A stretch of DNA of 60,115 nucleotides, the filler included, from Dugesia japonica (taxonomy: Eukaryota): the NCBI GenBank assembly GCA_001938525.1. It is 6 parts of 6 records of this genome, joined end to end, with 100 filler letters (N's around TTAATTAATTAA, not from the genome) between each part and the next. Parts side by side here need not be neighbours in the genome. Positions count along the whole stretch, not along the records: positions 42,171 to 51,215 come from MQRL01647745.1; 5 more parts are not named here. One strand, 5' to 3'. Shown piece by piece: positions 8,768 through 58,935 of this stretch; the stretch's first letter is position 1, and the number at the start of each line of letters is the position of its first letter. Position numbers and translations under genes: made by a program. Under the pieces are notes generated by a model. The model was not told where the DNA came from and did not search any database. It saw only the letters and a list, made by a program, of their open reading frames with translations.

Positions 8768-8867
8768 NNNNNNNNNNNNNNNNNNNNNNNNNNNNNNNNN
8801 NNNNNNNNNNNTTAATTAATTAANNNNNNNNNNNNNNNNNNNNNNNNNNNNNNNNNNNNNNNNNNNN
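8768..8867. other. Artificial contig linker (N44-TTAATTAATTAA-N44)
   Basis: 100-bp spacer with stops in all six frames. Identical copies at 19088-19187, 29088-29187, 42071-42170 and 51216-51315. Confidence 0.95.
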
Positions 8868-10124: not shown

Positions 10125-11475
10125 CTATATTGTTGCATTAGATTCACTTGATGTTGAGTTTGGTTTTGAGAGTTTTTTTATCTGGTTCCTTAATTTATCG
10201 TTTTTGTCCATCATTTTTCCAATGGCTTGATTGTTTCTCGATTTATTATTGTAATTTGTATTGGAATTGCCAAAGCCAGATCTCTGGTTATTCTGAAAAC
10301 AGTTTCTACTCGTGTGACCCGGTTTGTTGCATGTATAACACACTGGTGATTTTGTGATGAAGCAGTTTTGAGCTTTATGTCCTTGTTTCTGACAATTTGT
10401 ACATATCGTTGCTGATCTGCAATCTCTAGCATAATGACCAAGTTTACCACAGTTATAACATGTAATTCCCTGGGGTTGCTGCCACGATCCTTGTCTATTT
10501 CCTCCACTTGATCTTATATTAGTATTTGATTGTCGCGGTGCGGGTCTATTCTGACCTGGTGACAGCCCTCTCAATAATGGTTGAGTTCTGTCGGGTATAA
10601 AATCTGCAACTTTTGGTTCGCTTTTCCCTTCCTCTTTTTGCTCTTCAATTTTAAAAACACTAACTTGTTTTTTATTCATTTCCACTTTATGGGCTACCAT
10701 CGCCGCGTTTATTGCCATATCTACCGTTGTAGGTTGAGATAGATTTACCCATTTTTTCACTTCTGCATTTCTAAGTCCTTTAATAAAGATACCGAGCACT
10801 GTGGGATCATCCAACTTGTCCTTTGTTGCCAATTTGCCGAGTTTACGCAATTCTGTTGCGTATGCCTGAAAAGTTTCATCTTTTAGTTGTCTTCGCCCCA
10901 CAAACTCTTGAATTTCTTGTCCTTACAACATTAATGGCTTGAAGTTTTAAAACAACACTTTCTAAGCTTTTTCTCAGGTATTAACGGGATCTTGACGATC
11001 ATTAATTTTATCCCAATAAATAGTTTTAGCTGAATGCTTTAAATATAGAGGTAATCTATCTGCTGCTCTCTTGTCGCTCCATTGACAGGCTTGTATATGT
11101 ATCCCATATGCCGCAATAAGACTCCGAACTTGATTCCGAGTACTGGCGAATTCTACTTGACGCTCTTGTCGTAGTTATACTATCGGTAACTGATTTAGAT
11201 TCGTCTAAACTTTCTAGATCAATGTCTTCTAATCAATCGGCTCTTGAGTTGTTTGGTTCGGTTATGGTATCAAATTCTCCTGGTACGTCGTCGCTAGACG
11301 GGAATGAATTGGGTGATTTGGATGCTGAAATTGATAGAGATTGATTAAATTGTCGGGATGGCCTGTTGTAGGAGACCGATCGTTTTATTTTAGCTGAATT
11401 GGGTCGTTTACTTACAAATGACCTTCTATTTTCGGTACTTTCTCGAAAATTGTATCGGGATTCTTGATTATCTAT
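10125..11475 (-). pseudogene. gag: Gag (capsid + three CCHC zinc knuckles), decayed
   Basis: CA N-terminus QWSDKRAADRLPLYLKHSAKTIYW; MHR-like RQLKDETFQAYATEL..FIKGL; knuckles CYNCGKLGHYARDC, CTNCQKQGHKAQNC and CYTCNKPGHTSRNC. The presumed start reads ATA at 11475. Stops and frameshifts lie upstream of 10901. Confidence 0.9.
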
Positions 11476-12151: not shown

Positions 12152-12940
12152 CACGTGAGGACAATCCACCTGCCCCTGGTAGTTTATCCTCCGGATAAAC
12201 AATTTCACCAGTTTCTGGCAGTTTATACCCTTGATAAACTTTTACTGTCCATTAATAATTAATTTATCTTGCTTTACCTATACATTGGAACAATTCCGCC
12301 CGTTCCTGGCAATTTATCGCTCAAAGACAATTTTTCCCAATTGACGATTACTTCAATTCGACTCCTTTGCTCACGTTGGGACAATCCCACCTGTCCCTGG
12401 TAATTTATCCTCCGGATAAACTTTTAATGTCAATTAACACTTCTTTTGTTTCAACTCCTTTTCCACATGGAAACATTTTCGCCTGTTCCTGGCAGTTTAT
12501 ACCCCTGATAAACTTTTAATATCCCTTTACATTTGCTGCATCCTAACTTCATTTTCACGTGGGAACACTTTCGCCGGTCCCTATCAGTTTATACCCTTGA
12601 TAAACTTTCACTGCTAATCAATGATTAAACTATCTCCACTTTAAATTGTCCCTTTGTAGAACTATTTACTCAATTTCGTCACGGTTCATTTTTTTTAAAA
12701 TTATTTCAATTACCAATTTGTTAGCTATACCTTTCCTTTCACCACTTTACATTAGTACCTCTCAACATATACAATGGAACTCTTGTGCCAATTCCTGGTA
12801 AATTTCCTTGCGAAATTTGATAAGTTCAAAGCTCTCCCATAATAAATATCAATAAACTTCTCCTCAACTTATTCATTTTAACTATACACTCGGATAGTTT
12901 TCATTACTTCTCCAAATTTAACTATACACTTGGATAGTTT
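12152..12940 (-). repeat. Degenerate ~92-bp tandem array, each unit with a short stem-loop
   Basis: Units start near 12152, 12206, 12281, 12372, 12464 and 12556 (CACGTGGGAACA..CCTGG(C/T)AGTTTAT-N5-7-ATAAACT). Related hairpins at 12800-12818, 12880-12899 and 12920-12939. Confidence 0.8.
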
Positions 12941-16680: not shown

Positions 16681-16697
16681 ATCCCGGCTGAGCCCCA
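16681..16697 (-). promoter_or_regulatory. Primer-binding site, tRNA-Pro type
   Basis: Minus strand TGGGGCTCAGCCGGGAT is close to the canonical tRNA-Pro PBS TGGGGGCTCGTCCGGGAT, on the same strand as and upstream of gag. Confidence 0.75.
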
Positions 16698-17039
16698 AAA
16701 CACTTATTGAGTTTTTAGGATTTGGTATTCAAACTGCTAGCTTTAAATTCACCGCTCCCGTTTCCAATAATTTTATTGTATGTACCTGTCTAGGGACATA
16801 TCTAAAAACCACAAGCGTTTATGTCACTTCTGTGACATGCCCCTTTCTTTCCACGGGTTCAGCGCGACTTTGCGGTATCGCGTCTTACTCAAAACAAAAA
16901 GAAAACTGTGAACCCAGTCTATACTAATCTAACAAGCTCAGTAAAATAAATCTAGTTGATGCAAATAAGTAAGTAGTACTGTAATACATAAATCATTCAA
17001 ACCAACACTCACTAATATTTATTTTATAGTATACACCAT

Positions 17040-17360
17040 TTATTCGGCATCCAAATCGATCGTCGACTCCGTAATTGTGCTTGTTTCCTCTGGGGATAGG
17101 TAATTGAGCCATAATGTCCGCAGTGAAACGAACATGGAACCTTCTCGATCCGCATAAGTTTTAATTATATCGGCCATTAATCGATTGGCATGCTGAAGTG
17201 ACAGTTCCTTCTTCTTGATTTGATTATATTTGGAGGTCGATTTCAAGACCTGCCCCTTCAACCTCAAGATTTCATTTTTTAACTCTCGACGCTCCTCTTT
17301 CCATCTCTGTGGAGCGGCTTCCTCTCCTCTCGACAGCTTGGTATCTTTCGATTTATTCAC
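17040..17360 (-). CDS. LTR-encoded coiled-coil protein (gene C homolog), 106 aa
   Basis: Ungapped alignment to ORFs 42767..43057 and 47283..47531 (RW, RxK, SK, E, IIxxYxDRE conserved). Begins TTATTAG|TG; AATAAA overlaps the stop. Confidence 0.7.
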   Translation of the reverse strand: MNKSKDTKLSRGEEAAPQRWKEERRELKNEILRLKGQVLKSTSKYNQIKKKELSLQHANRLMADIIKTYADREGSMFVSLRTLWLNYLSPEETSTITESTIDLDAE

Positions 17361-17616
17361 TAATAAATATCAAAATTTAACATCTGCAACACTAATACGA
17401 ATATAATAAAGTGTAAATGAACTAAAGCAATACTCAAGTAAAGGAATCCAAACTTAATTAACGTTCACCGATGGTCATAAGAATACAAGAAAAATAACTC
17501 GATGTTTGGCTTACAAAAAGAATTTAGATCTGACACTATACATTTCTATCTACTACTGCCTCTGCAGATTTCACAAATTATAACCGTTGAGTGACATACA
17601 TATCACTTGGATCTCT

Positions 17617-18105
17617 TTAATAAAAAAAATATGAAAAAAAACAAGACCAAAAGCCCGTAATACCCAACATGTATTGATCCTTGGTCGCAAAGGACTCCAC
17701 TTTTACGATTACTAACTGCTGGACATCGCTCGACTCCTGGGAGCTTTCAGATGATAGTGCCAAAACCTGATCTTCGAGTTGACCCAATAATAAATTATGT
17801 TCTATCTGCTGCCGGATCAAGTTCTCCGTACTTTCCTTAATGGCCTGTCTTCACTGCCAGAGTCTATCATTTTCCTGTCGATATAACTGTAGTTTCGACT
17901 GGGTATCCATGAGCTGCTGTTTCATGCTTCGGAATTTAGTGACCAAATGACCTCCCTTATGTAGTAACTCCTTTTTTTCTTTTTCATTATTAGCTTTCTG
18001 TTCATCCAACAATTCAACGGTGTTCCTCCAGGGGATCCAAAACGTACCTTCATCCATGTCATTGGATAACACCAAGGGAATATGTGCATTGAAGTAAGTT
18101 GTCAT
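17617..18105 (-). pseudogene. LTR-encoded coiled-coil ORF (gene E) with one internal stop
   Basis: ORFs 17851..18105 and 17617..17820 share a frame and are separated by one TGA. The ATG is 3 nt after a TTTTTCTTATAG acceptor. Confidence 0.55.
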
Positions 18106-21100
18106 TGTCTATAAGAAAAATATTAACAATTATTTGAATTTCCGTCATTTATTTTAAACATATTCTTAAGTAACGAATTGAAAATAAGCTGCAATTAAAA
18201 CATCAACGTATCTTTGGCCTGCGGCCTATAGTCTCTGGTTCCACCGCCTCTATAGTACGAACCAGAGAAGATGTCCACCAAAGCAGCCATCTTTCCTAGT
18301 TCCCACTAATTCGAAGCTTTAACAAGAACTCCTTATCAGTCAGTTTCCTAAGAAATGCAAAATACAGGCAAATTGTAATTCCATAATTCTCGATATCTTT
18401 AATTTCTTTTAACGATCCGGGAGTACGAGTTGGCTGGCCGACGGGCACTCGAATTTAGGGATAGATTATACAAGATTTACCATATTAATATTAATGAAAT
18501 AAATATATTTTACTTTTAATTGTTCGGCTTCTTTTTAACTGGCAAAATTATCTTGCAAAACTTGATATATAATAGTAGCAATTATAACTTTTTCACAAAA
18601 TTTGATATATAATAGTAACGAATTCTAATTGAAAAATTTTTAATCACAAAATTATATGGTAATTTTTCTGACCAATTTTTCAGTGCAAACGAGTTTTATT
18701 TCTCGTTTGCACCCCAACTTGGAATTGGTTATTTGCTTACCAATNGTAGTCGTTTTTCGTCTAATCCGGATTTCTGATTGGTTGTTGTGTTGTTGTGCAT
18801 CTTTTCATTTTCATCTCAGTGAGAGATTGTGCACACAAACTTTATTTACTTCAAAATTATTCAGCAGGTCACCTCATATGACCTCTGAATAATCGGATGT
18901 TAATGTTACTAAGTCCTGGTTTAGCGCGAAATGATTCAGCTAATCTGTTGATGATTTTTCTTCAGCTAAACAAGGCATGATGACTGGACCAGACTTAATT
19001 AAATATAATATTATAATATTAAACGCTATACAGCGTTATTATAATAATGAAATTGGGTCGCAGAGACCTCTTTAATAACTTATTATANNNNNNNNNNNNN
19101 NNNNNNNNNNNNNNNNNNNNNNNNNNNNNNNTTAATTAATTAANNNNNNNNNNNNNNNNNNNNNNNNNNNNNNNNNNNNNNNNNNNNAAAAATGTCAATT
19201 TTAATACGTTCTTTAATTAATTTGTCAGATTTTTGAATTAAATGCAAAAACATGTTTAGGAAAATTAAAAAAATATTTAACTCTTTTAATGAATGCAATG
19301 CAAATTATATTTATTTTTTGATCAATTTACCGCTTACATCAGTTCAAATTCTCTAATGTCATTACTGTAGAATTTCATGATGTACTGATATTTAGAAAAC
19401 ATTATACCATTGAATTATTTTCATTTACATTTTTTATAATTCTATTTATNNNNNNNNNNNNNNNNNNNNNNNNNNNNNNNNNNNNNNNNNNNNNNNNNNN
19501 NNNNNNGTTCCTATAATAAAAAATATATCAATTTTATTAAATAACTATAATAATTTTTAACTGAAAATTACTTCACTTTTATTCATAATCTATTTTCACA
19601 TCATATTTATTACCACGCTTTTGTTTAAATGTGTCACATTTATTGATTTTATTAAAATTGATATTATACTACCTTTTTTACGTTTCATATTGATTTGTAA
19701 TATAATAATCTAATGAATATAAGTAAGAATTTCATAATTGCAAAAGATTTGTTTTAAATTATAAAAAATTAAAAATATTTTCAAAAAATACGAAAATAAA
19801 CTGAGGCTTAAATCAAAAAACAAGGTTTCAAAAAAATGTTTTTTTTTAAAATTTTTATTAAAGCTACAAAAACTTTTTCAAATAAACTTTATTGTTATAA
19901 ACGATTATTGTTACTTGATTTGAATTGTGTTAGATGAGTCTACAATGCTCACTGTGGAATTTNNNNNNNNNNNNNNNNNNNNNNNNNNNNNNNNNNNNNN
20001 NNNNNNNNNNNNNNNNNNNNNNNNNNNNNNNNNNNNNNNNNNNNNNNNNNNAATTTGAGATCCAGCTTTAATCTTAAAAGTTTTTTTTTATTATTTATTA
20101 ATTTCAAACTTTATCTTATTTTACTTAATTTATTTGAAAATAATTTCATATTTTTAAAATTAAATTTCGTTTTAATATATAAAATTCAAATCTCAAAAAA
20201 TTTGACTGTTCAATAATTATTTTCTTACAGTTTGTATCGTGTGTAAAACTTCATATATTGTTGGAACTTAATCAATTAAACGAACATGAGATGTGGAGTT
20301 ACAGATTTCAATAAATTTGTATTTGTTCTATAATAATCCAGCATTTCATTTATGATAAATTCGATATAAAAAAAACATCAATTCAGAAATAACTGCATTT
20401 ATTAATTTTTATTTCAATGTTTTTTTCAAATAACAATAAATTTATTAATAATTATAATTAAATTATAAATTCAAACTAAATTTTTATATTTTGTATCAAA
20501 TAATTTTTCGTTAAAATATGAAATATTGCTTATTAAATTAAAACAATACACATTGTTAGTTTTAAACATTAAAATATTTGCTAGACTTTCCGTGGCGACT
20601 TTTCCATTAACGAGCATTTAGTTTTTATAGTGACAATCTCGTATAGAAGAATCAATAAATAATATTTAATTTAATAATAACAATTTGAATGAAAACAATA
20701 TAATTATAAATTAAAATAATTATGATTATAATCTATTTTTTCTAAGCTTTATCTTGCTCTCCAAAAATATATAAAAGTTCCTTTAGTCATAAAAAGGATT
20801 AATCTTAGTTCAAAATTTCAAAAAGTGCAAGTATGCAATCACAGCAAGCACACAATAAAAACAAATAATGAAATATATTTTTCAAACATTTAAATTTTAT
20901 TTTAATTATTTATTATTTAGTTTTTGTTTGACAATAACAATTATTGCGAGAATAATTGTTTGGCGTAACCATTGATCGTTTTTTTTGGACGAAGACAAAG
21001 TCAAAAATCAGAATTATCAAAAAAAAAATTTTATTCGAAGTTTTTATTTTTTACTTAATTATTTATCATTTATTTGTTGTAAATTTCATTTTTTTAAAAT

Positions 21101-42070: not shown

Positions 42071-42278
42071 NNNNNNNNNNNNNNNNNNNNNNNNNNNNNN
42101 NNNNNNNNNNNNNNTTAATTAATTAANNNNNNNNNNNNNNNNNNNNNNNNNNNNNNNNNNNNNNNNNNNNAACTTTATGCAAGGTTCACACTCGTACACC
42201 TTTAATTCGCGTTCTTTGCTTTCTCTATTTCACAGTCAATTAATAAATCGTTAAAAATAATTTATATTTTATAATATA

Positions 42279-42641
42279 CTACATGAGATCCATAACATCT
42301 GGGTCTAACCACTGGGTGGGATCGTCAGCTAAAAAATTAAACGACGCTTCGTCGTCCTGGTCATTTCATTGTACCCAGGACGCATTACCAAGCTGGCGAG
42401 ATAAATCTGCAATATATCTCTTCAAAATATCGATTTTTTTCTGAAGAAGCTGTTTCGTCTGCTCGGCTAGATCTCCCTGCTTCTAAACGATGAGGTCTAG
42501 TCTTTTTATGAGTCTATTACGTTGTGCGAGATATTTGAGTAGAGCCCGTTCAGTTTGTCGTTTGAGGTAACGTTCTAGTAACAACTTAGTGATTAGTCGA
42601 TGACAACGACGTAGACTTGTCGGAAATCTAATTTGTGGCAT
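42279..42641 (-). pseudogene. LTR gene D (120 aa basic helical protein with acidic tail), two internal stops
   Basis: MPQIRFPTSLRRCHRLITKLLLERYLKRQTERALL..KIDILKRYIADL..DEASFNFLADDPTQWLD; homolog at 46759-47114. Confidence 0.75.
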
Positions 42642-42766
42642 TAAATAAGATTTATCATTAAATAAGTTAATCTCTTATAAGAGGTGATAATTAGCTAAGT
42701 AAATAATTTGAAAAGAAGAATTTAATTACACAAAGGAAAATCATTTATTTATAAAACCGAGAAAAA

Positions 42767-43121
42767 TTAAGGCCATGATGTCTGAATACCCTTATCTATC
42801 ATTAAATGTTCGAGGGGCATCGCAGTTTTTACTTTCAAAATTTCCTGGACCAGTTTATTCTCACGGTCTTGGTAGGACCGAATAATCTCTGTGAAAAATT
42901 CTATTTGAGCCTTCCACACTCTCTCTTGGGTGTGAGATGCTTTGGCTTTGGATTTGAACGCCATGCACTTATTTTTGTATCGCTTCACCTTACTATTGGC
43001 GTTCGCATTATCAGCTTCCCAGCGACGTTTAGCGAGCTTGTAAACGTCACAGGTCATCTCTAAGTCCCCAATGGACTCGCGGACTCTCTTGGGGCAGCTG
43101 CGCTATAAAAGGAGGAATACA
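42767..43121 (-). CDS. LTR gene C, coiled-coil protein (main ORF 42767..43057; 5' extension frameshifted)
   Basis: 47/82 aa identical to 47283..47531 by manual count; acceptor TTCTAG|TG at 43122/43121; AATAAA just downstream. Confidence 0.75.
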
Positions 43122-43360
43122 CTAGAATATAGAACATTAAACGAAATCTACGAAAACTAGATAAAAGAAGTGGCGAAGTGCACAAAACACCTACTCACAT
43201 ACGGTGATATTCATTCGAAACTCACTAATCATCAAATATACTTTTTCTTTTAACGAAAATTAATTTAACTGAGAAATAAAATTGAACTAAACGGATTTAT
43301 TATTAAACCTTAAAAAACTATTTATTCAGATTATAGTGAGACCATAAATGACATCGACTA

Positions 43361-43708
43361 TTACTGGTCGGTCTCCATGTTGACTATTGGTTCTATAATT
43401 TCCGAAATTTCTGCACCCGTGGGTTCTCTAATACCCCAGAGCAAGTTCGTAATAAAAGCTTGTACTGCTGGGGGCGGGACTGAATGTTGATAGCGGAATG
43501 GAGTTACGTGATTATGCACCGGTCCATTCCAATTCTGGTAATACTGTCGTTCCCCAAAATTCTGGATCCGTGCTACCATAATCTCTACTGGAGGTAGATT
43601 AGACTGGTCCAAAAGAATGCCCGCGTCTCGATTGTACGGGTTTATATGTCGTCGAAAAATCATACGACGTGTTCGTCGGTCGTTAACTCTTTCCCATACA
43701 AATTTCAT
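43361..43708 (-). CDS. LTR gene B, 115 aa, unknown function
   Basis: Intact ORF; DxRT..IFxR..NPYxRxAGxLxD and PP....AFI...LWxIR are conserved in 47777-48208. Confidence 0.75.
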   Translation of the reverse strand: MKFVWERVNDRRTRRMIFRRHINPYNRDAGILLDQSNLPPVEIMVARIQNFGERQYYQNWNGPVHNHVTPFRYQHSVPPPAVQAFITNLLWGIREPTGAEISEIIEPIVNMETDQ

Positions 43709-43865
43709 TAAATTTATTTGGTTCAGTAATAAATTGAAATTATAATCAATTTTAGCAATTTACTGACTAAGTTATTAAATGTGTGCTGTAAAAGAATTCA
43801 AAACTTTTAATCAAGACGTGTAATTTATATTTAACCTATATCAAAGATAAAACCAGATACGTCAG

Positions 43866-44051
43866 TCAATCTTCACTGTCTATATCGACAATACAACACA
43901 ATGGAAATAATTCGGCGAAGCATTGAAGATCCAGCTCATCAGGTGTAGGGACACAATCTGGGAAGAGAAGATGTGCGATTAACTGTTTTCGACGTATCCG
44001 CTTACGTTCTTGGCGAATAACGGTTAATGCGTTGGTTAAGATGTTTGACAT
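43866..44051 (-). CDS. LTR gene A, 61 aa, unknown function
   Basis: IR..RK..R.KQL.AH.L and PxExDxxCFxExFP....VDxDxE are conserved in 48372-48579; ATG 4 nt after TTCAG. Confidence 0.7.
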   Translation of the reverse strand: MSNILTNALTVIRQERKRIRRKQLIAHLLFPDCVPTPDELDLQCFAELFPLCCIVDIDSED

Positions 44052-46298
44052 TAATCTGAATGGAAATTATTAATGATAATAATCAATTCTCTTATTAATT
44101 GAATGTGAACGGGTGTTGATAATAAATATTTGGGTTTAATCTTCCTCGGGCAGTTAATCATACTCGTAACAATCAAATAATACTAGGCTACCCAATTAAC
44201 AATAGTTCTGATAATAGCAGTGGAGTTTATGAGATTATCGTGTTCCCTATCATCGTTGTCATAGAACAATATTAACAATTAAATTCTTAACAATAATGCC
44301 AGCAGAACCATCTAACCAAAAGAAAATATCACGCATGGTTAATCGGAATAGTGATATGCTAGCATCAATAGAACAATAATTAAATTCCTCCAGTTAACTA
44401 TCATAATAACAACAATAATAATAACATCATAGTGTTGGAATAACTCGTGCCAAAATCCCCGTAATAAAAACAAATGGTAACATTGGTCATGATAACAGAA
44501 TTGCTATATGTAAACAATTTATAGTAGTGTGTTCTTAATGATCGAGAAATCTCATCGCACAATGACAACCAAGTCCCATTCCGAAAGTCATGCTTATCTA
44601 CGTAATATTTGTTAGCGCTTATATGGGTTGGTTATCTAGTATGCATGCAGGGACACTATGAAGCATATACACGCACTTCACGTGCCTGTGTGTCGTTGAT
44701 TAGATGTGAGCAATTGACAACTTTAGACACTGATTAAAACCTGTGAAATTGAAAATTATCAAGACAAAAAGGAATTGTCGATATTTGAGGTTGCGGAAAA
44801 TGGATTGCTGGTAAGTATGCTATGTTCATTGCATAGAGCTTTCTTGGTTCGAGATTAAATCAGTTATAAATTCCTTGAGTCAGTTATTAACCATCTCTCA
44901 CCTAGGACATTTATGTCGATAATTTGTCAGTTACTTGCATTTGTGAGGTTTACAAAGGGAAGTTGCTGTTTCATGCCACAATGTCGCTCACTTTCTGGGT
45001 TGAGAATACGAGTAAACAATGAATGTGTGATAAATGAAAATTGATCAAATATTTAAACATCGTCAGCGGCCATCATGGCAGATTATTATCTCTTTTTATC
45101 GTAATATTAAAAATCATTTTTTATTAAATTTTATATTTATTAGCATAACTAACAATTTATATGAGGATTATTTTCTACATTCACATTTAATGATCAATAC
45201 ATATTCATTCGTTTATATTATGTCTATTTTCTAAATTACATTTAACGACAAAGACATATCTAATAATTAGCATTAAGATTATTTCTCAATTCACAAAAGT
45301 ATACTATATTATTGTCAAATTCTGCAACGAGGAAGTCCACTGACAGATTTTCCTTNNNNNNNNNNNNNNNNNNNNNNNNNNNNNNNNNNNNNNNNNNNNN
45401 NNNNNNNNNNNNNNNNNNNNNNNNNNNNNNNNNNNNNNNNNNNNNNNNNNNNNNNNNNNNNNNNNNNNNNNNNNNNNNNNNNNNNNNNNNNNNNNNNNNN
45501 NNNNNNNNNNNNNNNNNNNNNNNNNNNNNNNNNNNNNNNNNNNNNNNNNNNNNNNNACGCAGATGCTTAATTCACAATGATTAGATAATAGTTAATTTTC
45601 TGCCTAAAACTAGGGGGCTTAAATAGCATTTCTGATGACACCCCGATTTGCTCTGCATTGGCCAGCTATTTTTAATTCCAATTTTCTGTCTCTGATTGGT
45701 GATGATGCCAATTTTCAGAAGCCTTTGCAGATTTTTAGTACTCGTATTGGCCGTTATTTTTAGACCATCAGGTGAGATTTGGTTCTAATTTTTGAACCTT
45801 CGTCAAAACCCTCCCAATGGTGTTTCAATTTTCTGGATACAAAATCCCGATGCTCTAATACATTGTCTTCTCAAATTTTCTTGCACTGAGCTTCTATGAG
45901 TTTTCTGAGCCAAGATATTCGTAAAAAACGGATTTTTGACTAATTTTGACTTATTTTTTATTTAAAATTAATTAATGTTTTCTGATAATTAATTATTTTC
46001 CAGGAATGTTTTTCTTGTTTTTTATTTTTAATTTCATTATTTCTTTTAATTATTGTAATTGATATGGTCGGATTTGTTGACCCAAGATCTTCATCTCCAT
46101 TTCCTTTATATTTTTTATCTTTTATTAATTTAGCCCTACTGATTATTCTTAATTACTTTTCTTGTGGCTTTGACTATGTAACTTCATCGTAACTATGTTG
46201 TTCTTGATTGACTGTCCCTTCGGACCCCTTCCTTCATCATTTCTCCTTCTTGTGCCCTTGGCTTGATTTTTCTTTATAGACTGGGGGTTTCACCCTAA

Positions 46299-46300
<2 letters not shown>

Positions 46301-46360
<60 letters not shown>

Positions 46361-46464
46361 NNNNNNNNNNNNNNNNNNNNNNNNNNNNNNNNNNNNNNNN
46401 NNNNNNNNNNNNNNNNNNNNNNNNNNNNNNNNNNNNNNNNNNNNNNNNNNNNNNNNNNNNNNNN

Positions 46465-46517
<53 letters not shown>
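46301..46517. repeat. (TTA)n/(AAT)n microsatellite between two LTR ends
   Basis: Pure TTA repeats on both sides of an N run (46361-46464). Confidence 0.97.
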
Positions 46518-46518
<1 letters not shown>

Positions 46519-46758
46519 GTTGGGGTTCCGCCTGAGTTTGTGGTAGAAAAACGATGGCTGGGGAAAAACAGCCCTCACAGGACCCGTCCAAAAATTTAAT
46601 CGAAAGTCCCTCGTTTTGATTTTCATTGTAGGGCGGTTGACCTCCAACACTTACTTGAGGTACATACCCTTTAGTTTTTTGTTTCATTAGATAAAACCAA
46701 ACCATTGATAAAACCAAAACCAAAATTAAAACGTTGTTAAAAACAAAATTTTATTCTA

Positions 46759-47114
46759 TTAAACCGACGGCCCCTGATCAAGCCATTCGGAGGATTCATC
46801 GTCCATCAAATCAAATGCGGCCTCATCAACTTCAATGGCCAGTGCGCCCATTGCTCAATCTCTAGGCGAGTAGCTAGATCGGCGATATATTGTTTGAGGA
46901 AAGCGATTTTATTGATGAGAATCTTTTGAGCGCGCTTAATTTAACTCTTCTTCTTTCTTAACGATCAAACCAAGCCTTTTAATTAACCGATCACATTGCG
47001 TCAAGTGATGGAGCAAAGCGCGTTTAGTTTGCCGTTTTAGATGGCATTCCAGCAGGAGTTTCTGGATAAGTCTATGGGATCTGCGCAGACTAGTAGGGAA
47101 CCGAATACGTGGCA
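46759..47114 (-). pseudogene. LTR gene D, second copy (frameshifted)
   Basis: TTTCAG|TG-PRIRFPTSLRRSHRLIQKLLLECHLKRQTKRALL..KIAFLKQYIADL..DEAAFDLMDDESSEWLD; AATAAA near 46750. Confidence 0.75.
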
Positions 47115-47240
47115 CTGAAATAAAGAACGATAATTATCGTTGAAAAATGAAACAAAATTAACTTCAAAATAAATAAGACAACTAGAAAAAACACAGTTAA
47201 ATTAAGATAAAAAGCTTTTATTTACAAATCAACGGTGAAG

Positions 47241-47599
47241 TCACTGTCGTGAGGTTTGGATGCCTTTGTTGACCATCAAAGGTTAGAGGGGTATGGTCTT
47301 TCTTAGCAGCAAAATATCAGATATCAGTTTATTCTCACGGTCATGGAGGGACTGGGTGACTTCGGTGAAGGACTCAACCTGCGCTTTCCATACTCTCTCC
47401 TGCTCATTAGAGGTTTTGATCTCTTTCCGAAAATCAATATACTTTGCCTTGTATCTTTTTACCTTTGCGTCAGCATTAGCTACATCAGTCTCCCTTCTGC
47501 GTTTTGCAAGGCGATAGGGATCCCAGGTCATGTCCTGGTCCTCATTGGCCTCGCGTACTTTCTAAGTTGGAGCTGTGGAACGATTTAGAGAAGAATGCA
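47241..47599 (-). pseudogene. LTR gene C, second copy (two internal stops)
   Basis: TTACAG|TG-HSSLNRSTAPT*KVRE..MTWDPYRLAKRR..IPL*PLMVNKGIQTS. Confidence 0.75.
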
Positions 47600-47776
47600 C
47601 TGTAAATAATATCATCAAAAAACACCTGAACCTTAACGACTTATACTGTATGATAACTATGACAGAATGATTATTGCATTATAATTACTATAGAAGCCGA
47701 AAATATTACAAGTAAAACATAAATAAAACACAGGTACACGAAGTTAGTATTCTCTATTAAGCAATTTAGAAAATCA

Positions 47777-48208
47777 TTAGGTGGCAGATTCATTGTCTCC
47801 AATAACGTTAGAATTTTCGCAGCTTTCACCTTCCTCTTCGTTACGGATGTTCCAAAGATTGTCATGTATGAAGGCTGTTAAGTTCCAGGGAGGAGAAATA
47901 TGTGTGGCCGTGACACCTACAACTGATGGGCCTTCGTGCCAAGAACGAGTAATATGCAGTTCACCACTTGAGTCTAACTGGGTAGATAGGGTCGAATAAT
48001 ATACGGCGCGCCTACGGTCGGGGCCACTTAAAGCTTAGTATGCCTGTCGCTCACATGCGTCATATTCTCTCTCTTCTTCTGCAATCTCAACTGACACGTT
48101 CGCTCGATCTACCAGAACCCCGGCATTTCGATCATATGGGTTTTTGTACCTTTTGAAAATAGTACTTTTGGTTCTCTTATCCAATAAAACCTCTCATTTA
48201 TGCTCCAT
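47777..48208 (-). pseudogene. LTR gene B, second copy
   Basis: AACAG|AA-MEHK*EVLLDKRTKSTIFKRYKNPYDRNAGVLVD..HISPPWNLTAFIHDNLWNIR. Confidence 0.72.
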
Positions 48209-48371
48209 TTCTGTTAATGTTAAAATCATAATATTACTAAATAAAACGAAAAAGTATTTTTATTTAAAGATGTAGGAATCCATTAACGCTACTGAATTAG
48301 CATTTATTTTGCTACAATAAAATAAAACAATGAATTTTAATGATCAAAAATTGTCGCATAGGTTTATTGGC

Positions 48372-48579
48372 TTAGATATACAGAGGAATTATCAGGAACC
48401 ATTCTTCCTCATCCAAGTCAACTTGATATTTCGAAGGAAACATCTCGGTGAAACACTTTATGTCGGTTTCGTATGGATGTTCAACCTTACCCCGGGACAA
48501 AATGTGTGCTAATAATTGTTTTAGTCGAGTCGACTTACGCTGCTTTCGGATCAGACGTCTTTCTTAATTCGATTTGCAT
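48372..48579 (-). pseudogene. LTR gene A, second copy (frameshift near start)
   Basis: TTTAG|GAT-MQIELRKT/LIRKQRKSTRLKQLLAHILSRGKVEHPYETDIKCFTEMFPSKYQVDLDEE; AATAAA at 48363-48368. Confidence 0.7.
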
Positions 48580-49312
48580 ATCCTAAATAATATAAAGGTT
48601 AAAATCGGTTTTGAGCCGGTTCTTAATTATGCAACCCCCTCCCCCTGAAATTAAGTTAATCGGGACAAAATAAATAAAAATCTTAACTAAGAATTTGACT
48701 GCCTTCTTAATGTAATTGACGTTCCGGTAGTTAGTGGTAACCGATTTGACCTTACTTGGCACTCTATTGTTAATAATTAGGATTGGAACAGGGTAGTGAC
48801 AATCAGCAACATTATTAGTGCTCCTCAAGACCACAGCAACTATGGCGGCCAAAACTCTTATGAAGGGTAAGAATTTAAAAATAATGATATGGCTATCATA
48901 ATGATAATAGGTTTGATGATAATGATATTAATGCCAGCAATAAATAATATGAACGAACCGCTTATGATTACAGATGATGTTTTAATAAATGGAGGTAATA
49001 AAATTGATACTAGTAGCAACCATAAATAACCTACTACCATTGCAAAAAAAATAAAATGAATAATAATGACGACGATGATACCACCCATAGACTCGAATAT
49101 AATAATAAAATGCTTAAATAAAATGATGGTAAGTATGAATTTAAATATATTTAAATTCATGTAACTTGACTAATAAATATAATTAATAATCGTACCACTG
49201 ATCATAATTAAGAAAGGTATCATATTATTTATAATTTCTTCAATGGCTACAATACTAAGTCTAATTACGACTCTATTAATTGCGAGGAACCACTCATGAT
49301 TTATCTGGGAGC

Positions 49313-49347
49313 AAAACACAAACACAAACACAAACACAAACACAAAC
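49313..49347. repeat. (AAACAC)n hexamer tract
   Basis: About five to six visible copies. Confidence 0.85.
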
Positions 49348-51315
49348 TCGTTATTCCATTTTAATCAGATTGAGACTATTACTTGTTGACGGCACTCGTG
49401 TTGTTACCGATCCTGCTGGCGATGTTAAGTGTATTTAACTATGACTCGGTAGGTGTGCATCGCTATGACGCGGATGGAGAGAAAAAGTATCAACACCCCA
49501 TTTGGAGTAATGAATTTTAATATGACACATCTCTTGCTTGGAATCTATCAGTTACAAAATGAAAATCGATTTTAGACTAATTATATCTAGTGTTTAATTT
49601 CATTAATGTGGAATTTTCTTTATTAATGTTGTGATGCGGAATTAGACATTACCGAAAAAATTTCTATTGGCGTGGATGTATCATGGAATTATTAAATGGA
49701 ATTTGATATATCTGCAGTAGCATCTCTGCCTGGAACTCAGTTTTTTGCAGAATTTAATCGAATGGTTATTCATTGGTTATTACTAAATTATTATACTCAT
49801 TTCGTTATCTTTTTTCTAAAATTATTAACGGTGTAAATGTGATGGAATTTAATGTAACATACATTATTAATTTCACGATTTCTCATTTGAGCGGCTACCA
49901 ACTAATGTATCGATAAGTTGCATAAGAAATAATTTCATAAAATAAAATTTGTTTCTTTCCTATAATTGTCATTCATTAAAATTAAACATAAATTGATCTG
50001 AATTAAGGAAATATATTTATTGCATTTAAAATTCGTATCACAAAATAATTAACATCAAAATTACATTTTAAGTGTCTAGTTCAAGGTTCCTGTAACGGGA
50101 TTGTCGTAAAATTCAGCTTCTTGTTTTTCTGAATTAGCAATTTAAATTACGTTCCGCAAAAGTGTTATCGAGGTTTATTCTTGCTTTATCGATGATTATC
50201 CAACTAGTGATACGAGCTTTCCAACTTTTTAAGCTAAAATTTTCTTCCAAATTAAATTTTGTTATTTCCAGCAGTACAATGAAATTTTCTTTTTATAGAG
50301 TTTTCTGACCACGAGAATTAAATTAGTACCGTAATGGCATACCTATAATTTTTTTCTAAATTATAAGGGTTTATATACCCTTTTTCGATGCATCTCGACA
50401 CCATCGTCATTGGTTTCTATTTTTAATTTATGTTTTCTTGTTTTTATTGGTGATGGTGCCAATTCTTAGATTTTTTCTACGATTCTTTCATCTACCATTG
50501 GTGCCTATTTTTAGGGTACCATGTAGTTTTCTTGTCTTTGTCTTATTTTCTTTTTCTGGCTCCTTATTGGCCCACTCTTTAAATCCTTGTAGGGGTCTTC
50601 CTGATTGTGATAAGATTTTTTTATTGCAAAATCCTATTGCCCCTTGACATTTTCTTTCCAGATTTTCTCTTATTGATTCTTATGAGGGGAGTTATTCCCG
50701 AATAACTGATTTTGGCTTAATTTTAATTTATTTTCTCGATGAAATTAATTAATATTCCTTTATTAATTAATTATTATTTTCTTGATTATTTTTTTTTAAT
50801 AATCATAATTTTCTTAATTAATCGCGTGATTTGACCAATATTCAGTCATCTGATGCGTTCATTCTGCATTTTATCTTTTCTACTCGTCTTCCGTATTGAG
50901 GTAATTTTTTTATTGCATTTATTATGTTTAAACAAAGAATTACCAATGAAAACATGTTAATAACATAAAATAACACATTTTTAACCAATAAAATAAATAT
51001 ATACAAAGTTTACTTATCAAAACCTAGTATAAAAACGAATACGTGTAATAAACTTTCATTACTTTACTATGCAAAAACCTATTACTGTAACAAAAGATAC
51101 TGTTATGTCTATTATAGTAGATTACGGAAAACCTACTGAACTTCATGGAATACAAATGAAATTCTTTAAGAGATCAATAATTTATACGTTTCAGGTACTT
51201 TAGTTTTTTAATTTTNNNNNNNNNNNNNNNNNNNNNNNNNNNNNNNNNNNNNNNNNNNNTTAATTAATTAANNNNNNNNNNNNNNNNNNNNNNNNNNNNN
51301 NNNNNNNNNNNNNNN

Positions 51316-52750
51316 ATGTATGATATTGGCCGAGAATAAAGATTTTAACGGATTGAAAAAAGATCAAGATGAGGACGAAGAAGTGAAAAAATTCTTAGAA
51401 TATATATCTCACTTTGATTTTAGTAAAGTAGAGTGTAACAAAGCGATGAAGGAACATTGAAAGAAACGAGGCGGTAGATACACAGTGGTGAACGAATGAT
51501 TAATGATGTAGGAAGGTGATCAACTGTTATTGGTAATACCAAAATGTAGAAAAGCAAAAATACTGGAACAGTATCATAATGGAGTTCTCGGAGGTCATAT
51601 GTCAGCAAAGAAAACGGTATCAAAATTACGAGCAAAATATTATTGGCCTCATATTACAACATTTGTGAGAGAATGGATTAGTAAATGCGAAATTTGTGCG
51701 GCCAGAAAAGGAACTGGAAAGAAAATTAAAGTTCCGTTACAACCGATACCAGTGCCAGCGGCACCAATGGATATAATTGCAAAGGACATAATCGGACCAT
51801 TGCCACCAACGGACAGTGGAAAGGTATATATTTTGACAGTAGTGGATTATTTATCCAAATTTCCCGAGGCTTTTGCATTAAAAGATCAGAAAGCGTCGAC
51901 CATTGCTAGAGTATTAGTCGATAAACTATTCAGTCGATACGGCCCACCTAAAAAGATATTGACAGATCAAGGAAAGAATTTCATGAGTTAATTAATGAAA
52001 GAAGTGACTAGTTATTTTAATATTCATAAAGTGCGGACATTGGCGTATCATCCATAAACGGATAGGATGACAGAGCGATTTAATCAGACATTGACTAGAA
52101 TGTTATCGAGTTACGCGACCAGATCCCATAGAGATTGGGATAAGCATTTGAATTTATGTTTATTTGCATATAGAATGGGAGAACATCCCGCAACAAAAGC
52201 TTCACCTTTTAAACTAATGTACGGCCGAGAATGTTATATGCCAATAGATTTGGAGCATCAGCCACCGATATCGCAGTACATGGATGAGGATGATTACGTT
52301 ACCGGCATGAAAGAGATAATGCAAGAAATATGGAGATTGGCAGCATTAAATGCAAAATTTAATCAAGAGAGTTATAAGGAATTGTATGATCGAGATACAA
52401 AACCCCATATGTTCAAAAAGGGTGATATGGTATTAATTAATACACCAACAATCGAAATTAGAACCACGGAGAAATTAAAACGACCAAACAGAGGACCATA
52501 TTTAGTTTTAGAGACAACTGCAACAAATCTAAAAGTAAAGGAAGTGGGAAAACCACTTAAAAAGCCAAGTATTGTTCATGTATCGAGATGCAAACTAGCA
52601 GCAATCGAGGACGACAATGATAAAGAAAGCGATGAGGAGACTGTGGAAAGAGTGAGGCGAGTCTCAGTCAAACCAAAAATGGAGGATAAAGAGAAGGAGG
52701 TTAAACAAAAGTTGAAAAAGACAAAAAGAGTTAGTTTTAAAACGAGATAA
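51316..52750 (+). pseudogene. Ty3/Gypsy integrase (H2C2 zinc domain, DDE core, GPY/F module) with in-frame stops
   Basis: YHNGVLGGH..CEIC; KDIIGPLP..VVDYLSKF..ILTDQG..YHP*TDRMTERFN; GPYLV. Confidence 0.95.
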
Positions 52751-55700
52751 ATTGATGAGGAGAGTCGATATCCGATTAGATCCAGACAACAAATAATGAT
52801 GATGAACACGAAAACCAGCAAAACTAAAAGTAATATGGCTGAAATTCAAGAGGAGGAAAGTGTTAAACAAGAAGAGCGGTGTATATTTTGTAAGGCGACA
52901 AAACCAGATTCGGTACCATTAAACAAAGAGCTAATAGGAAAATCATGTTATCATTGCTTGTGAGGTATGTGTGATGATGTAGCAGAGTTAGTGGAGAATT
53001 TGAGTCGCGAATCTTCCCAGGAGGGAAGAGAAAAGTTTATCATGAACAAATTATCATGCGAATTATGTGGTCAGACATCAGTAAAATTACCAAGTGTCAC
53101 AAGTGAATACCAACAGTGGTGCTGAAGTTGTTTGAGCTTCGCACAAAGAATTTCTACGACAGAGATTAGGTGTATACATAAACACATGCAAGGGTTGACA
53201 GCCGCAAATCCTATTCAACAGAATATAGAACCAGCGTTGAATGAGATTGTGCAACAATATGAGGTAGATAATAATTTGGATATCTTTGAGAATGGCAGTG
53301 CCATGATGAGACAATATTACTCGTCTATAACGGAAGGAGTGACTCAAGGGAGTCGAACATGTAGTAATTCACAATGCGGACAGTCCGTCGAGAGAGGATG
53401 TCGCTTGAGTAATCTGGAAAAGCAGATATACGAGCCGTGTCTGTTGGTGATTCAAATAGTTACCAGAAAAAAGCAAGATCGGTGGATCTTAAACAGGAGC
53501 ATTAACGCTGAGAAAAACCTCAGGACTGTGGACGTCAAATCGAGTACTTTTAATTTGGAGAAGTTAGTCGTGCGATGCAAAATATGTTACAGTATCAGTC
53601 CTGTTGCAGTACCCTTGGATAAGATGCTCATGAGTAAAGCATGTTTCCAATGTTTACAATCGACTTATGACAACTTAACGTTGATGGAGAAGGGTGTCAG
53701 TCGAGAGTCAAAACGAGCGGATAGAGAGGGACGCAAGGATCCCCCATGTGAGCAGTGTAATGCAATATCGTGCAATATAAAAATAGACGCAGGACTATTC
53801 AAATAGTGGTGTAATCACTGTTTACGAAAGGTTAAAGAAATTATTAACCTTGAATTGGAGTGTGTACATGTACATAGGAGAGGATCGACAGCAGCCAACC
53901 CCATTAGGCAGTACATAGAATTAACTCATGAGGAAATTCTACAAAAATTTCAATTAAATGATCAATTAAATATTTATGAAAATAGACGAGATATGCTTAA
54001 TCAATATTATTCTTCAGTGACAGACGACTGGAAGAAAGGGAATCGAAAATGCGACAATCCGAGATGCGGAAGATATAACCTCAAAGGATTTATTCCCCAA
54101 AGCGGATGGAGACCATTATGCCAACCATGTCTGAGCGGTGTTCAGATAGTTACGACGAAGAATCAGGAGTATTGGATCTACAAGAATCAGCCGACATTTA
54201 AGGAAAACGACGAGATCGAACCAACAGTATGCGATAAATGTAGAGCATGGAGGCCTACCAGATGCCTAATCATTGTGACGGATATCATGAAGTTATGTAA
54301 ACAATGTTACCAAAGTGCGAAAAGTAGTGTTAAACGATCATTATTACAAGTCAAACGCAGAGGCCAATAGTTATTGGAAACGGGAGTGTGAGATAGTGCA
54401 GGTTGTGTCAGTTGTGTGAATGAAAAAGTCCAAGTGAAGTTGCCAGTACTGGAAACGGTATACAAAGAATTGTGTTTGGAATGCGCAATCGATATGCGTG
54501 GTCAATTGCAAGATGCAAAAAATGTGTTACATGGGGCCAAAAAACAGTTAAAGCTAAGCCAAACCACGCCAGTTAAAGGAGAACCTTTGACATCAATAGT
54601 ACGGAAGGAACGGTGGAGTGGGACTAAGAGTCAGATGCGAGGGATCGACGAGGACGTCGATTTTTTAAACAGGGGGAGTGATTGGTCTGAATTGTTGTTC
54701 AATGAGCGAATACGACGAATACACGAAGAATTAATTGATAAAAAACAAATAATGAAAGAGATGAGAGAGAGCAATAGTACATACTATGCTTTAAAGAAAC
54801 AGAACTTCCAATTAACGATATCAGAGGAGGATAAACGAACAATAAAAAATACGTGGGAAGCCTACAGCAAGCGCCAAGAAGAATACGAAGGACAAATAAA
54901 TAAAGAGGAATATAAAGCAGCGCAAGCCAAGCGGATGGCAGAGACGCAACAATTTATAAAAGAAAATGAAGGGCGAGGAAACCCTGATGTGGAACAATTA
55001 AAAAATGCGGTACAGTGGGTACAAACATTCGAACAAGTGGTGGAGAAATTAGAAAAAGATAAACAAGAGATTCAACAAAAAGCGGAGAAGCAACAAGAAN
55101 NNNNNNNNNNNNNNNNNNNNNNNNNNNNNNNNNNNNNNNNNNNNNNNNNGGAGAAATTAGAAAAAGATAAACAAGAGATTCAACAAAAAGCGGAGAAGCA
55201 ACAAGAAACGTTGGAGAGATTAAATAAAAAGAAAGCCCAAATGATAGAATCTCGTTCATGTCTGACGCAGAAACTAAATGTAATACAGAAAAACAACAAT
55301 GAACTGAAAAATTGGCCTAGTACATCGAACAAAAGTGAAAATCGTAGAAAGAGGGATAGAAAGAATAAAAATAAAAAATGGCAAGTTCGAAGCGCTACTA
55401 TGGAAATTGTGTATTCTTATTCAGATAACGATAATAGTGAAAAGGGTCACGATGCGCCAGAGGAAGTAATAAAAAGTGAATTTAGTGGACAACCGCCGCC
55501 GGCGGATGATGATGAGTCAACCAACTTCAGTAAATTAAAGGACGATTTATGGCACCAGTTGTTGACAAAGCGAGTAAAGTGCGAAGCAGAGAATAGTCAG
55601 AGAATCAAAACGGAAGGGGACGAAATATTTACTGCAGAAGCAATAGAAATGATACGAGCACACCAGGTAGGTGAAGAGGACATGCCAGCAGCAGTACTAG

Positions 55701-56962
55701 GAAAAGTTGAAGCTTATGGAGAAAGGTGTTACCAAAGATGGGTCCAAGAAAACAAGGAGGAGAGGAAGTCCAAAGGGCCGTTAGTAAATAAAGAGGAACA
55801 AAAATTTAAAGAAAAAGGAAAACCTGAAGAACCAGAACATAAAAATGAGACGAAGCCCGAAAAACAACCAATGGCGGAAGCGGAGCGAAAATTAAAGGAG
55901 GAAAACAAGGGAATAGAAACTGCAATACTATTAACGGTAGAAACAGTATTATGTCGTAAAAAGGATTTACCGAAAGATGAAGAGTTGGAGATGCAAGCAT
56001 ATTATCAATGTATAAGACGCAAATGGTGCGCTGATCGGCCAGGAGAAAAGGTCCCCACCATAAGAGATGGAGATAAGATGACGAGATGCCCGACAGATCA
56101 AGAATTTCATGTGTATCATGAACAGGAATATAAAAGAGAGTATGGTGAGTTACACAGCAAACTAGAGGAATATTTAAAAATTGAGGAATCGTACAACGNN
56201 NNNNNNNNNNNNNNNNNNNNNNNNNNNNNNNNNNNNNNNNNNNNNNNNAAAAGAGAGTATGGTGAGTTACACAGCAAACTAGAGGAATATTTAAAAATTG
56301 AGGAATCGTACAACGGAAAATCGCTTACCAAACAAGAGTGCGAAGAACGATTAAGAAGAAGTGAAGATATGGTTATCGAGTATCAGAGAAAAGCAGAAAT
56401 CTATCCACATCCAATGTTATTAGAGGAAAGTAAAGCGATGGAAAAATTATACCGTAAAGCACTAGACCGGAGAGCAAAACAAGAACAAAAACGGGATTTG
56501 AGCAAGCACCAAGGTCAAGTGGAGATGTTGAAAAGAGTACGGAGCAAACAAGTGGAAAAAAGGGATGGATTCATGAAACCAGAAACGGAAACGAAAACGT
56601 TAAAGGAAGCAGAAACGTTGAACTTTTGTGGGATTCTTGAGAGAGACACAAAAGATAATGAACAAGTCGAGGACAAGATAGTAGTAATTGGAATGATAGA
56701 CCTCAAGGGTAATGTCCTGTTTGAGATGCCTTTTACACCTGAGCTAATGGAAGAGATAAGAGCAGCTCAAGATAAACAAAAAACGCAGAAGTTTGAACCG
56801 GTAAGGTACGAGTGTGTGCTGAAAAGTAACGGGCAAGTAATAGAACAAGAAATTAACTTAATAAAGGATTAAGCAACAATTAAAGAACCGAGTCCAGGAA
56901 CTCCATTACCAGAACTACCCACGGTTGAAAATGATACGTCAGAAGGAAATTATGTATACGCG
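52751..56962 (+). pseudogene. In-frame post-integrase extension: ~2.5 tandem Cys-rich modules, then a long charged/coiled-coil region
   Basis: ORFs 51530, 52067, 53132, 53855, 54416 and 56963 all lie in one frame, separated only by isolated stops. TAANPI..QYYSS..C....CG..PCL..QIVT..WI recurs about 240 codons apart. Confidence 0.8.
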
Positions 56963-58935
56963 ATGACTAAATCCGAATCACAGGATCACATTTACGAAAA
57001 TGAGTCGGGAGATCTAAAGGTGGAAACAAAGCCGTCCGTTCTAAGAAATTTTCGGAAGACAATGTGGGCATGCTTAGCATTGATACCGGTGTCAATAGTT
57101 ATTTTTTTATTAGTAACGCTAACGGCGGTAGCATGGCCAACAACGGTACAAATGACAAATTTGTATGAGTTTAACGAGTCAACCACGATGTCTAGTGGGG
57201 CAAATAGACAAACCAAGCTAATGAGTAAATGGATATATGTCCTAATGGCGTTGGTTGCATACGAAGTGATAGGACTGGAGCGAGATTGGCCAACCAGACC
57301 AACCATTGTCGTAAGTCAGACGACTAATGATAATCGGAAACTGTTAATGATAATAACAGTAATAATGGCGTTAGCATTTGCAGTGACAATCGTAATCTTA
57401 GTAATGACAGTGAATAGACAAGCGCAACTACAGCTTGAATTTCAGCCTGACTTCGAGATTCAGAGGAACGGGAGCCCATTAACAATTCAATGGAACAAGT
57501 GGATGTATATAGTATTATTACTAATTGGGTTCAAAGTGTTAAGTGGAGAAGAGTGTACTGATTATGAGGATATTCATACGGAACATCGAATCTATATGAC
57601 TTACTATAAAACTTGGGAAACACACGACCTCTAGAATCATTGATAAAAACAAAACATCAATCGATTAAAGTGGATCTCTATAGATTCGCTTGGTCGCTAG
57701 ATATCAAGATCAAAGGTAGTAAGAAAGAGCAAGTTCGAATTGTCCTATACAACCATGAAACGTGGGGTGTTGTGGGGGATGAAGACATAATTCTTGCCTA
57801 CAACCAGAACTCGGGATTGTTCGAAGCCAACAGAGAGTGTAGTTTTTATTACTACCACTATATTCAGGTATTCTATTCTACGCGTGCCTGGTATGAGCCA
57901 GTTTGGCTCAGCTTCCGAGACAAATGTCGGAAGAAACAAGCGGGGTATATCTCGCAAGTCTGGAGAATTGAACCACGAGGAGTAACGGGAATTCAATGGA
58001 ATTAGTTTCCATTAGGTATTTGGAGACAGCATGCCGTCTTCCGAAGAGGAGAGTGGCCTATGATCGACGTGAAAATGAGTATAGTAGATAAAGAGAATCC
58101 AAGGACACCCCAAGATGCAGAAGTTACGTTCCAAGTAGCGCGTAGAAAATAATGGTTGTTTCGGATTAAGCAATATCGATCTTTAACATATTGGACGCAA
58201 GACGGGATGTTACAAGAGTATAAATGGAAACGTAATCAAAGCGAAATGATAATGAAACTTAATCGAAAAAATGGAGAGTGGTTAGAATTAGAATATATAT
58301 TAATTGACGAGGCATCCCAGGACAACAAGGCATTAACTGCCAAACCGACGACGAAAGGGAGGACAAAAACAAAAACTTCCTTAAAAACAACAGCGGCTAG
58401 GTCATCAACTGAGAGGTCGACAACCAGGGTGTATCCAAAGACGACAACGCCGGCGACAAAAACTATCATGAAGAGAAACACGAGAGAAACCAGTGTACGA
58501 AGCAAAAGGAGAAACCATGCGATAACGAGGTATGTGAAGACGATAACTGATAGTGAATCAACAAAGAAGCCATCGAATATTTTAAATAAACAACATTTTA
58601 ATGAAAAATTAATGAAAGAGTTGGTAAGGACCGGTTCACGAAGGACATTTCCGGCAAAGGCTAGGTTGAAGCATGAGGCANNNNNNNNNNNNNNNNNNNN
58701 NNNNNNNNNNNNNNNNNNNNNNNNNNNNNNNNNNNNNNNNNNNGCGGGCGTCATTACGATAATCATGATGACGATTATAACGATATTAATTTGTAAAGCG
58801 AAAAGAGGGCAGTATCCTAGACTGCGTTTAGAACCAGAATTAAGAGAGTTGACAGCGAAATATTTCCACCCGCTAAGAGTGTTGGTGTGGTCGAGAGTTC
58901 CTGAGGGAGGAACTGAGTCGTTGTGGAGTTATTGA
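56963..58935 (+). pseudogene. Membrane-protein end of the polyprotein: TM/signal repeats and Env-like type I membrane protein
   Basis: Four hydrophobic segments in 56963..57634, a frameshift near 57620, an aromatic-rich ectodomain, a Thr-rich stalk, RSKRR, TM AGVITIIMMTIITILIC and tail KAKRGQYPRL. Confidence 0.65.

Follow-up and report, generated by a model that had tools for sequence, protein, structure and literature searches.

Accessory proteins of several retroviruses (Sag of mouse mammary tumor virus, Nef of human immunodeficiency virus and Bel of foamy viruses) are made through spliced RNA from open reading frames (ORFs) that overlap a long terminal repeat (LTR). The adenovirus major late unit combines one promoter, a three-part non-coding leader, alternative 3′ splice sites and several poly(A) signals. 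In errantiviruses of the springer subclade, splicing completes the methionine codon of env by bringing AU next to G (Senti et al., bioRxiv 10.1101/2023.08.03.551782), and flatworms trans-splice leaders that can give the start codon (PMC12582326). Here we describe a 60,115-nt stretch of the planarian Dugesia japonica (assembly GCA_001938525.1; six genomic parts joined by 100-nt fillers; hereafter the window), which holds decayed multi-kb LTRs of a Ty3/gypsy element that is likely Burro-like. Two of the four genes in its family-1 LTR, C and D, very probably obtain their start codon by splicing of a shared non-coding leader ending in A to an acceptor followed by TG.

The locus shares part of its plan with each of these systems. 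As in sag, nef and bel, accessory proteins would be made from LTR sequence via spliced RNA; those genes, however, occupy the U3 part of the 3′ LTR and so precede its copy of the promoter, whereas the four genes here are downstream of the TATA box, and because of this a solo LTR retains promoter, leader and genes together. The adenovirus late unit is similar by analogy, not kinship (one promoter, one non-coding leader, alternative acceptors, several poly(A) signals), but it belongs to a DNA virus, its leader has three parts and each of its genes has a whole AUG. Springer env is likewise an LTR retroelement gene with a splice-completed methionine codon; it is a single AU|G gene downstream of pol, while here A|UG would be formed in at least two genes inside the LTR, from one leader with at least three acceptors. 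The flatworm spliced leader also contributes to the start codon, but it is trans-spliced and carries a whole 3′-terminal AUG, which is out of frame at AG|TG. In the literature searched we found no multi-gene shared-leader cassette in a retrotransposon LTR; Grohme et al. 2018 and Repbase GYPSM1, outside that search, may mention LTR ORFs. LTRs are usually treated as non-coding promoters; the multi-kb LTR analysed here encodes four protein families on which purifying selection acts, and ORF finders miss two of these because their ATG is absent from the DNA.

Gene starts at splice acceptors

All the start sites named in an earlier note on this DNA are on the minus strand, which that note did not state, within long LTRs. 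Two family-1 LTRs, units A and B, stand head to tail at 42172-51215; the third LTR, unit C, belongs to a second family, and all three are decayed. Full copies of family 1 span TGTTGGGG to CCCCAACA and mostly measure 3.9-4.7 kb; 12 of 14 are flanked by a target duplication of 4 bp, within the 4-6 bp expected of Ty3/gypsy LTRs. The family-1 features in the window are as follows.

42172..46300, minus: LTR unit B, TG start at 46300, 3′ end lost to the contig end, decayed
45619..45625, minus: predicted TATA-like box of unit B, transcription start unmapped; CCAAT about 35 nt upstream, with equal spacing in 22 promoter matches
45305..45595, minus: putative leader exon common to the unit B genes, N in part, final A at 45305; donor decayed in the window copy
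45331-45320, minus: conserved CCGTTGCAG-type motif in the unit B leader
43869..44051, minus: gene A of unit B, about 60 codons, own ATG 4 nt past the acceptor
43361..43708, minus: gene B of unit B, 115 codons, own ATG, acceptor decayed in the window copy
42767..43121, minus: gene C of unit B, coiled-coil-like, about 119 codons, AG|TG start, early frameshift in the window copy
42279..42641, minus: gene D of unit B, about 120 codons, basic N-half and acidic C-end, AA|TG here versus AG|TG in relatives
46518..51215, minus: LTR unit A, whose 3′ end is at 46518 and whose 5′ end could not be located
50377, 50099-50088 and 50065|50064, minus: TATA box, motif and decayed donor of unit A
48579, 48208, 47599 and 47114, minus: starts of genes A, B, C and D of unit A

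The earlier note correctly placed AG|TG at 17359, 43121, 47599 and 47114 and a whole ATG 3, 4, 2 and 3 nt past an AG at 18105, 44051, 48208 and 48579, and its quoted peptides are right. The minus strand of the window has 1152 YAG, and TG comes next in only 69 of them (6%), so that the conservation of these starts exceeds chance. Among the best-scoring copies, AG|TG stands at codon 1 of gene C in 60 of 71 copies and in 22 of 23 unrelated intron-end types; for gene D the counts are 64 of 72 and 18 of 19. The peptide MPQIRFP, with which the earlier note had compared the gene D start as an intact ATG form, does begin at 42641; the ATG there occurs in only 2 of 61 copies, and MPQIRFP is therefore not an intact genomic start.

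Coding constraint of genes C and D starts at the AG|TG site. The ratio of nonsynonymous to synonymous differences (pN/pS, pairwise proportions over related copies rather than tree-based rates) is 0.28 for codons 2-23 of gene C and 0.27 for codons 24-50, compared with 1.07 and 1.13 in the other frames and 0.90 in the four codons upstream. In gene D codons 2-14 give 0.32, the other frames 1.42 and 1.23, and the upstream codons 2.07.

Genes A and B and the gene at 18105 keep a whole ATG a few bases past YAG, save one gene B lineage: YAG, 1-5 nt and ATG are found in most of 63 listed copies of gene A, and in gene B relatives the ATG is 0-15 nt past AG. The exceptional lineage (L058, L055, L068, L018 and L014) has AG|TG, and by comparison of the copies the split start appears to have arisen afresh in it.

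A leader exon ending in A

Some 240-400 nt downstream of the CCAAT/TATA promoter, the word CCGTTGCAG is followed by a splice donor. The motif, 8-36 nt and GTRAGT gave 856 matches genome-wide versus 9 in a reversed control. Among 100 matches listed, the base before GT, counted by eye, was A in 98 and G in 2, although the spacer between motif and donor is only 38% A, varies in length and occurs in all three frames. No word of the leader is conserved except this motif, which stands 10-40 nt upstream of the donor and is assigned to the exon because joined copies (below) retain it. The donor is decayed in unit B; its closest relative, L080, has a canonical donor at the leader end.

The 230 nt upstream of the donor hold 20 ATGs versus 89.6 +/- 7.3 in dinucleotide shuffles (27 sequences), while the 230 nt on the intron side hold 142 versus 131 +/- 9 (22 sequences). 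An early leader tally had 13 ATGs, six of them due to a false promoter pairing (L110). The leader, about 300 nt long and ATG-poor, thus has the sequence features of a non-coding first exon ending in A, as the earlier note had supposed for the piece that builds the start codon. AATAAA is found between genes B and C in 42 of 46 copies, a weak signal in AT-rich DNA.

In the long intron behind the leader, 48858-49169 (minus strand) and the matching part of other copies contain low-complexity, ATT/AAT-rich frames that differ between subfamilies; one strand reads as hydrophobic, the opposite strand as Asn/Asp-rich.

Intron-less copies of the LTR

Any reverse transcription of spliced element RNA would be expected to leave LTRs that lack the intron. 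Patterns made of the leader word, a free gap and a gene start, with the junction base left open, were searched for in the genome. They matched six times for gene C (one match in the control), seven times for gene D (none) and, with its own ATG, eight times for gene B (none). A true gene follows the join in 5/6 gene C, 7/7 gene D and 7/8 gene B matches, the remaining gene B match ending at a contig edge. L214 was rejected as a false join, no gene C being present behind its leader. The joined A|TG copies are as follows.

Gene C: L213 and L215-L218
Gene D: L219-L225

In all 12 of these joins the junction reads ATG. Three are complete short LTRs (L216, L221 and L225, of 2140, 1550 and 1634 nt), each with both LTR ends and a 4-bp duplication. 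The leader end of L216 is in register with the donors of 8/8 unspliced relatives (A|GTAAGT), and that of L221 matches six of eight listed relatives, the other two having decayed donors. L225 lines up base for base with a relative 97% alike, although the leader of that relative ends in T; among the relatives with a donor, A is found in 12 of 14. The other nine joins have no close relative among the compared loci, and the rows for L220 and L224, in which the wrong donors had been picked, are not counted. Joined forms are rare (20 real matches versus 856 unspliced donors).

We infer that these joins arose when spliced RNA of the element was reverse-transcribed, which would mean that one leader is joined to the alternative acceptors of B, C and D. 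Rare intron-less LTR copies of this kind can chart transposon splicing without RNA data.

On this reading a single promoter drives transcription, and in each RNA the leader would be spliced to the acceptor of A, B, C or D. Genes C and D would gain a start codon solely where the A of the leader meets TG, and their proteins would be made from leader-spliced RNA only; each gene would use its own poly(A) signal, and gene A and the 17359 gene would follow the same route. The split probably arose when the ATG slid onto the junction, after which the last base of the leader would have become locked as A. It is not necessary to see a designed switch in it, because unspliced RNA has many other upstream ATGs. 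More tentatively, and with rather less than even odds in our estimate, the LTR would be a self-contained four-gene operon of a complex invertebrate retrovirus-like element, whose thousands of solo LTRs are each left behind in the host genome as complete expression units; through the split start, selection of a splice site would then decide whether either of two regulatory proteins is made. The four-gene LTR would itself give these giant elements an accessory layer like that of complex retroviruses, and the same anatomy is predicted in the described Burro LTRs.

Alternative explanations

The conserved A|GT donor and the ATG at every joined C or D junction bear out the earlier proposal that a non-coding leader ending in A builds A|TG in these two genes. 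As to the piece that is joined, that note had named a shared leader, a local mini-exon and a spliced leader; in the joined genomic copies it is a shared cis leader, and neither of the other two. The local donors that it had suggested near 43235 and 44163 do exist (TTA|GT at 43226|43225 and CGA|GT at 44164|44163) but are not conserved. For mini-exons upstream of each gene to supply the A is accordingly very improbable: in the largest subfamily, several copies do share a TTA|GTGAG some 104 nt before gene C, yet a donor-like motif precedes gene C in just 23 of 46 copies, with T before it 18 times and A 16 times, and CGA|GTATGA precedes gene A in 2 of 47. The mini-exon sites are beyond the AATAAA of the previous gene and lack both a promoter and an acceptor, and every joined copy uses the distant leader instead. 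Addition of a trans-spliced leader RNA at each acceptor, natural as it would be in a flatworm, is the hardest to credit, since the flatworm leaders reported end in ATG (PMC12582326), which would be out of frame here, and the LTR holds its own cis leader with a donor, which is the very piece found joined. The short LTRs might also be DNA-level deletions or an older intron-free lineage rather than records of splicing. Other internal deletions are known (L033, L083 and L091) and no RNA junction was seen; on the other hand, the breakpoints coincide exactly with a GT donor at one side and, at the other, with any of three AG acceptors; the subfamilies concerned are unrelated, each short form is nearest to long relatives, and the joined forms are few. 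We give this account hardly any weight.

Slightly less remote, though still improbable, is that no splicing is needed and translation starts at GTG, at an internal methionine or, for gene C, at an ATG 15 nt farther upstream. This in-frame upstream ATG is present in 39 of 71 gene C copies, both window copies included; codon 24 of gene C is ATG in 56 of 71; and the sole RNA seen at the gene C site is unspliced. Yet the four codons after the −15 ATG give a pN/pS of 1.37 versus 0.10 for codons 2-5, an upstream ATG occurs in only 7/23 gene C and 3/19 gene D intron types, and 50 of 72 gene D copies have no methionine in 40 codons. An unspliced start also leaves the invariant A and the joined copies unexplained.

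Besides the two methionine positions just given, several points speak against splice-made starts. The copy samples consist of the best-scoring copies and are not random. L220 and L224 are 97% alike, so that the 12 joined copies may represent 11 events. No joined copy was found for gene A (0/4 pattern matches real) or for the 17359 gene of unit C (0/7 non-G starts), although at a joining frequency of about 1% these two failures say little, and three copies of the 17359 gene have AA|TG in an unspliced context. No read or contig spanning a leader-gene junction was displayed in 8 of 24 listed RNA runs, and three X8 reads and several X14 contigs run from the intron across the gene C acceptor, which makes them unspliced RNA or DNA. 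X14 was taken as RNA by guess, and X13 and X15 yielded no alignments. The comparison was of low depth, all its reads came from other copies (<95% alike in one comparison), with 13 and 109 loose-end rows outside the display, and no RNA run was found to match the window copy itself.

Unspliced RNA at these AGs is what the earlier note had named as contrary evidence. At that depth only unspliced forms were displayed; ATG at the join is seen in genomic copies. In planarians, elements of this sort are reported to be silenced by piwi and to be expressed when piwi is knocked down (PMC8532177); with such silencing, and with thousands of dead copies read passively inside host transcripts, the background would look like the unspliced RNA observed. 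Spliced expression today is a prediction from genomic copies, and the RNA comparison is the one result that counts against it. With these points included, we still hold a splice-made start for genes C and D, via the shared cis leader, to be very probable.

Identity of the element

A first look gave 6,600-11,400 candidates per gene in the 854-Mb AT-rich assembly (648,594 contigs), and the LTR 3′ end has 3,344 exact genome matches. After a 7-nt spacer, one common sequence follows the LTR end in 7 of 100 listed ends, and 108 exact junctions with the primer-site motif were found. The genome holds tRNA-Pro-like 3′ halves to which the primer-site sequence is complementary, and one of these has a TGG anticodon; the isotype was read by eye, ARAGORN calling no whole tRNA-Pro gene. 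Because most 3′ ends lack and a minority have an adjoining tRNA primer site, the repeat is read as an LTR, present in thousands of copies that by this pattern are mostly solo LTRs. A terminal-inverted-repeat transposon had been considered when primer-site patterns with a 0-4 nt gap gave one match each; with the true spacer at 7 nt, the idea was dropped.

Two long contigs (L284 and L303) continue past the primer site into gag and then, on the same strand, a mononegavirus-type fusion domain. PF24664 lies downstream of gag in 2/2 long internal regions (E 2.5e-19 and 7e-9), and pol lies beyond the stretch reached. Their gag is 36-38% alike to a gag fragment in the window.

10125..10922, minus: gag fragment, its three CCHC knuckles matching Pfam zf-CCHC (E 2e-17) with a weak match to Retrotrans_gag, on the contig and strand of unit C

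A mononegavirus-type fusion domain, expected between gag and pol, is given as the hallmark of planarian Burro elements (PMC6431247), which are also expected to exceed 30 kb and to have MATH, BIR, BCL2-like and ankyrin domains in the polyprotein. With Burro/GYPSM1, as described there, the element shares a CCHC gag followed by a same-strand mononegavirus-type fusion domain, thousands of decayed copies and multi-kb LTRs; section 7 of that review, however, mentions neither genes nor a leader or splicing within the LTR. On this likeness the element is likely a Burro-like, env-bearing Ty3/gypsy. MATH, BIR, BCL2 and ankyrin domains were absent from nine ORFs in the first 7.6-9.4 kb of two decayed copies, and no purine tract was noticed in the listed left flanks of full LTR copies, the contigs ending before pol.

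In L036 (about 6150-6400, + strand), past the primer site, a YAG followed by an ATG 5 nt on opens an ORF; the layout of one acceptor per gene may extend into the element. In L210 and L211 the LTR end and primer site run on into the T arm of a tRNA, as though copying had proceeded farther along the primer tRNA. Units A and B meet in an AAT microsatellite (46300-46518), and AAT/ATT runs flank many other copies.

A second LTR family

The 17359 gene, which the earlier note had grouped with the others, does share the AG|TG start (26 of 28 copies) but belongs to another LTR family. The features of this family in the window are as follows.

16706..19087, minus: family-2 LTR unit C, with a gap in place of its 5′ end
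18105, minus: start of a unit C gene, own ATG 3 nt past AG
17359-17040, minus: unit C gene with AG|TG start
18514|18513, minus: candidate donor of unit C, after A, a guess
16681..16698, minus: tRNA primer-binding site after unit C; the motif also follows 108 family-1 LTR ends

A tight pattern for starts of the 17359 gene gave 43 GTG, 0 ATG and 1 TTG. Its protein is weakly like that of gene C (BLASTP E 0.38; profile comparison best E 1e-4, median 0.006-0.035). A splice-made start may be proposed for this gene from the conservation of the site alone. Within the 5.7-kb region from primer site to gag of the family-2 element, 12197-12635 holds four copies of a ~92-nt repeat.

Encoded proteins

Pfam gave no family above cut-off for genes A-D or the family-2 genes, and the ESM Atlas no match for the 17359 protein; genes C and D show no detectable relationship to each other. 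Gene B had one 94-aa unnamed relative and one repeat-driven match among 1.84 billion proteins, and its predicted structure has a predicted local distance difference test score (pLDDT) of 53. Given basic N-halves, coiled coils and an acidic tail in D, our guess is that the A-D proteins would be small regulators of the element.

Other features of the window

An intronless ORF at 2017-2817 (minus strand) has 266 codons with PH and weak SH2 domains; a homologue search with it found none. The region 51512-58935 (+ strand) encodes an integrase, after which unknown ORFs totalling about 2,000 codons show CxxC repeats, a coiled coil and several hydrophobic segments, and is a second unusual large gypsy-like element.

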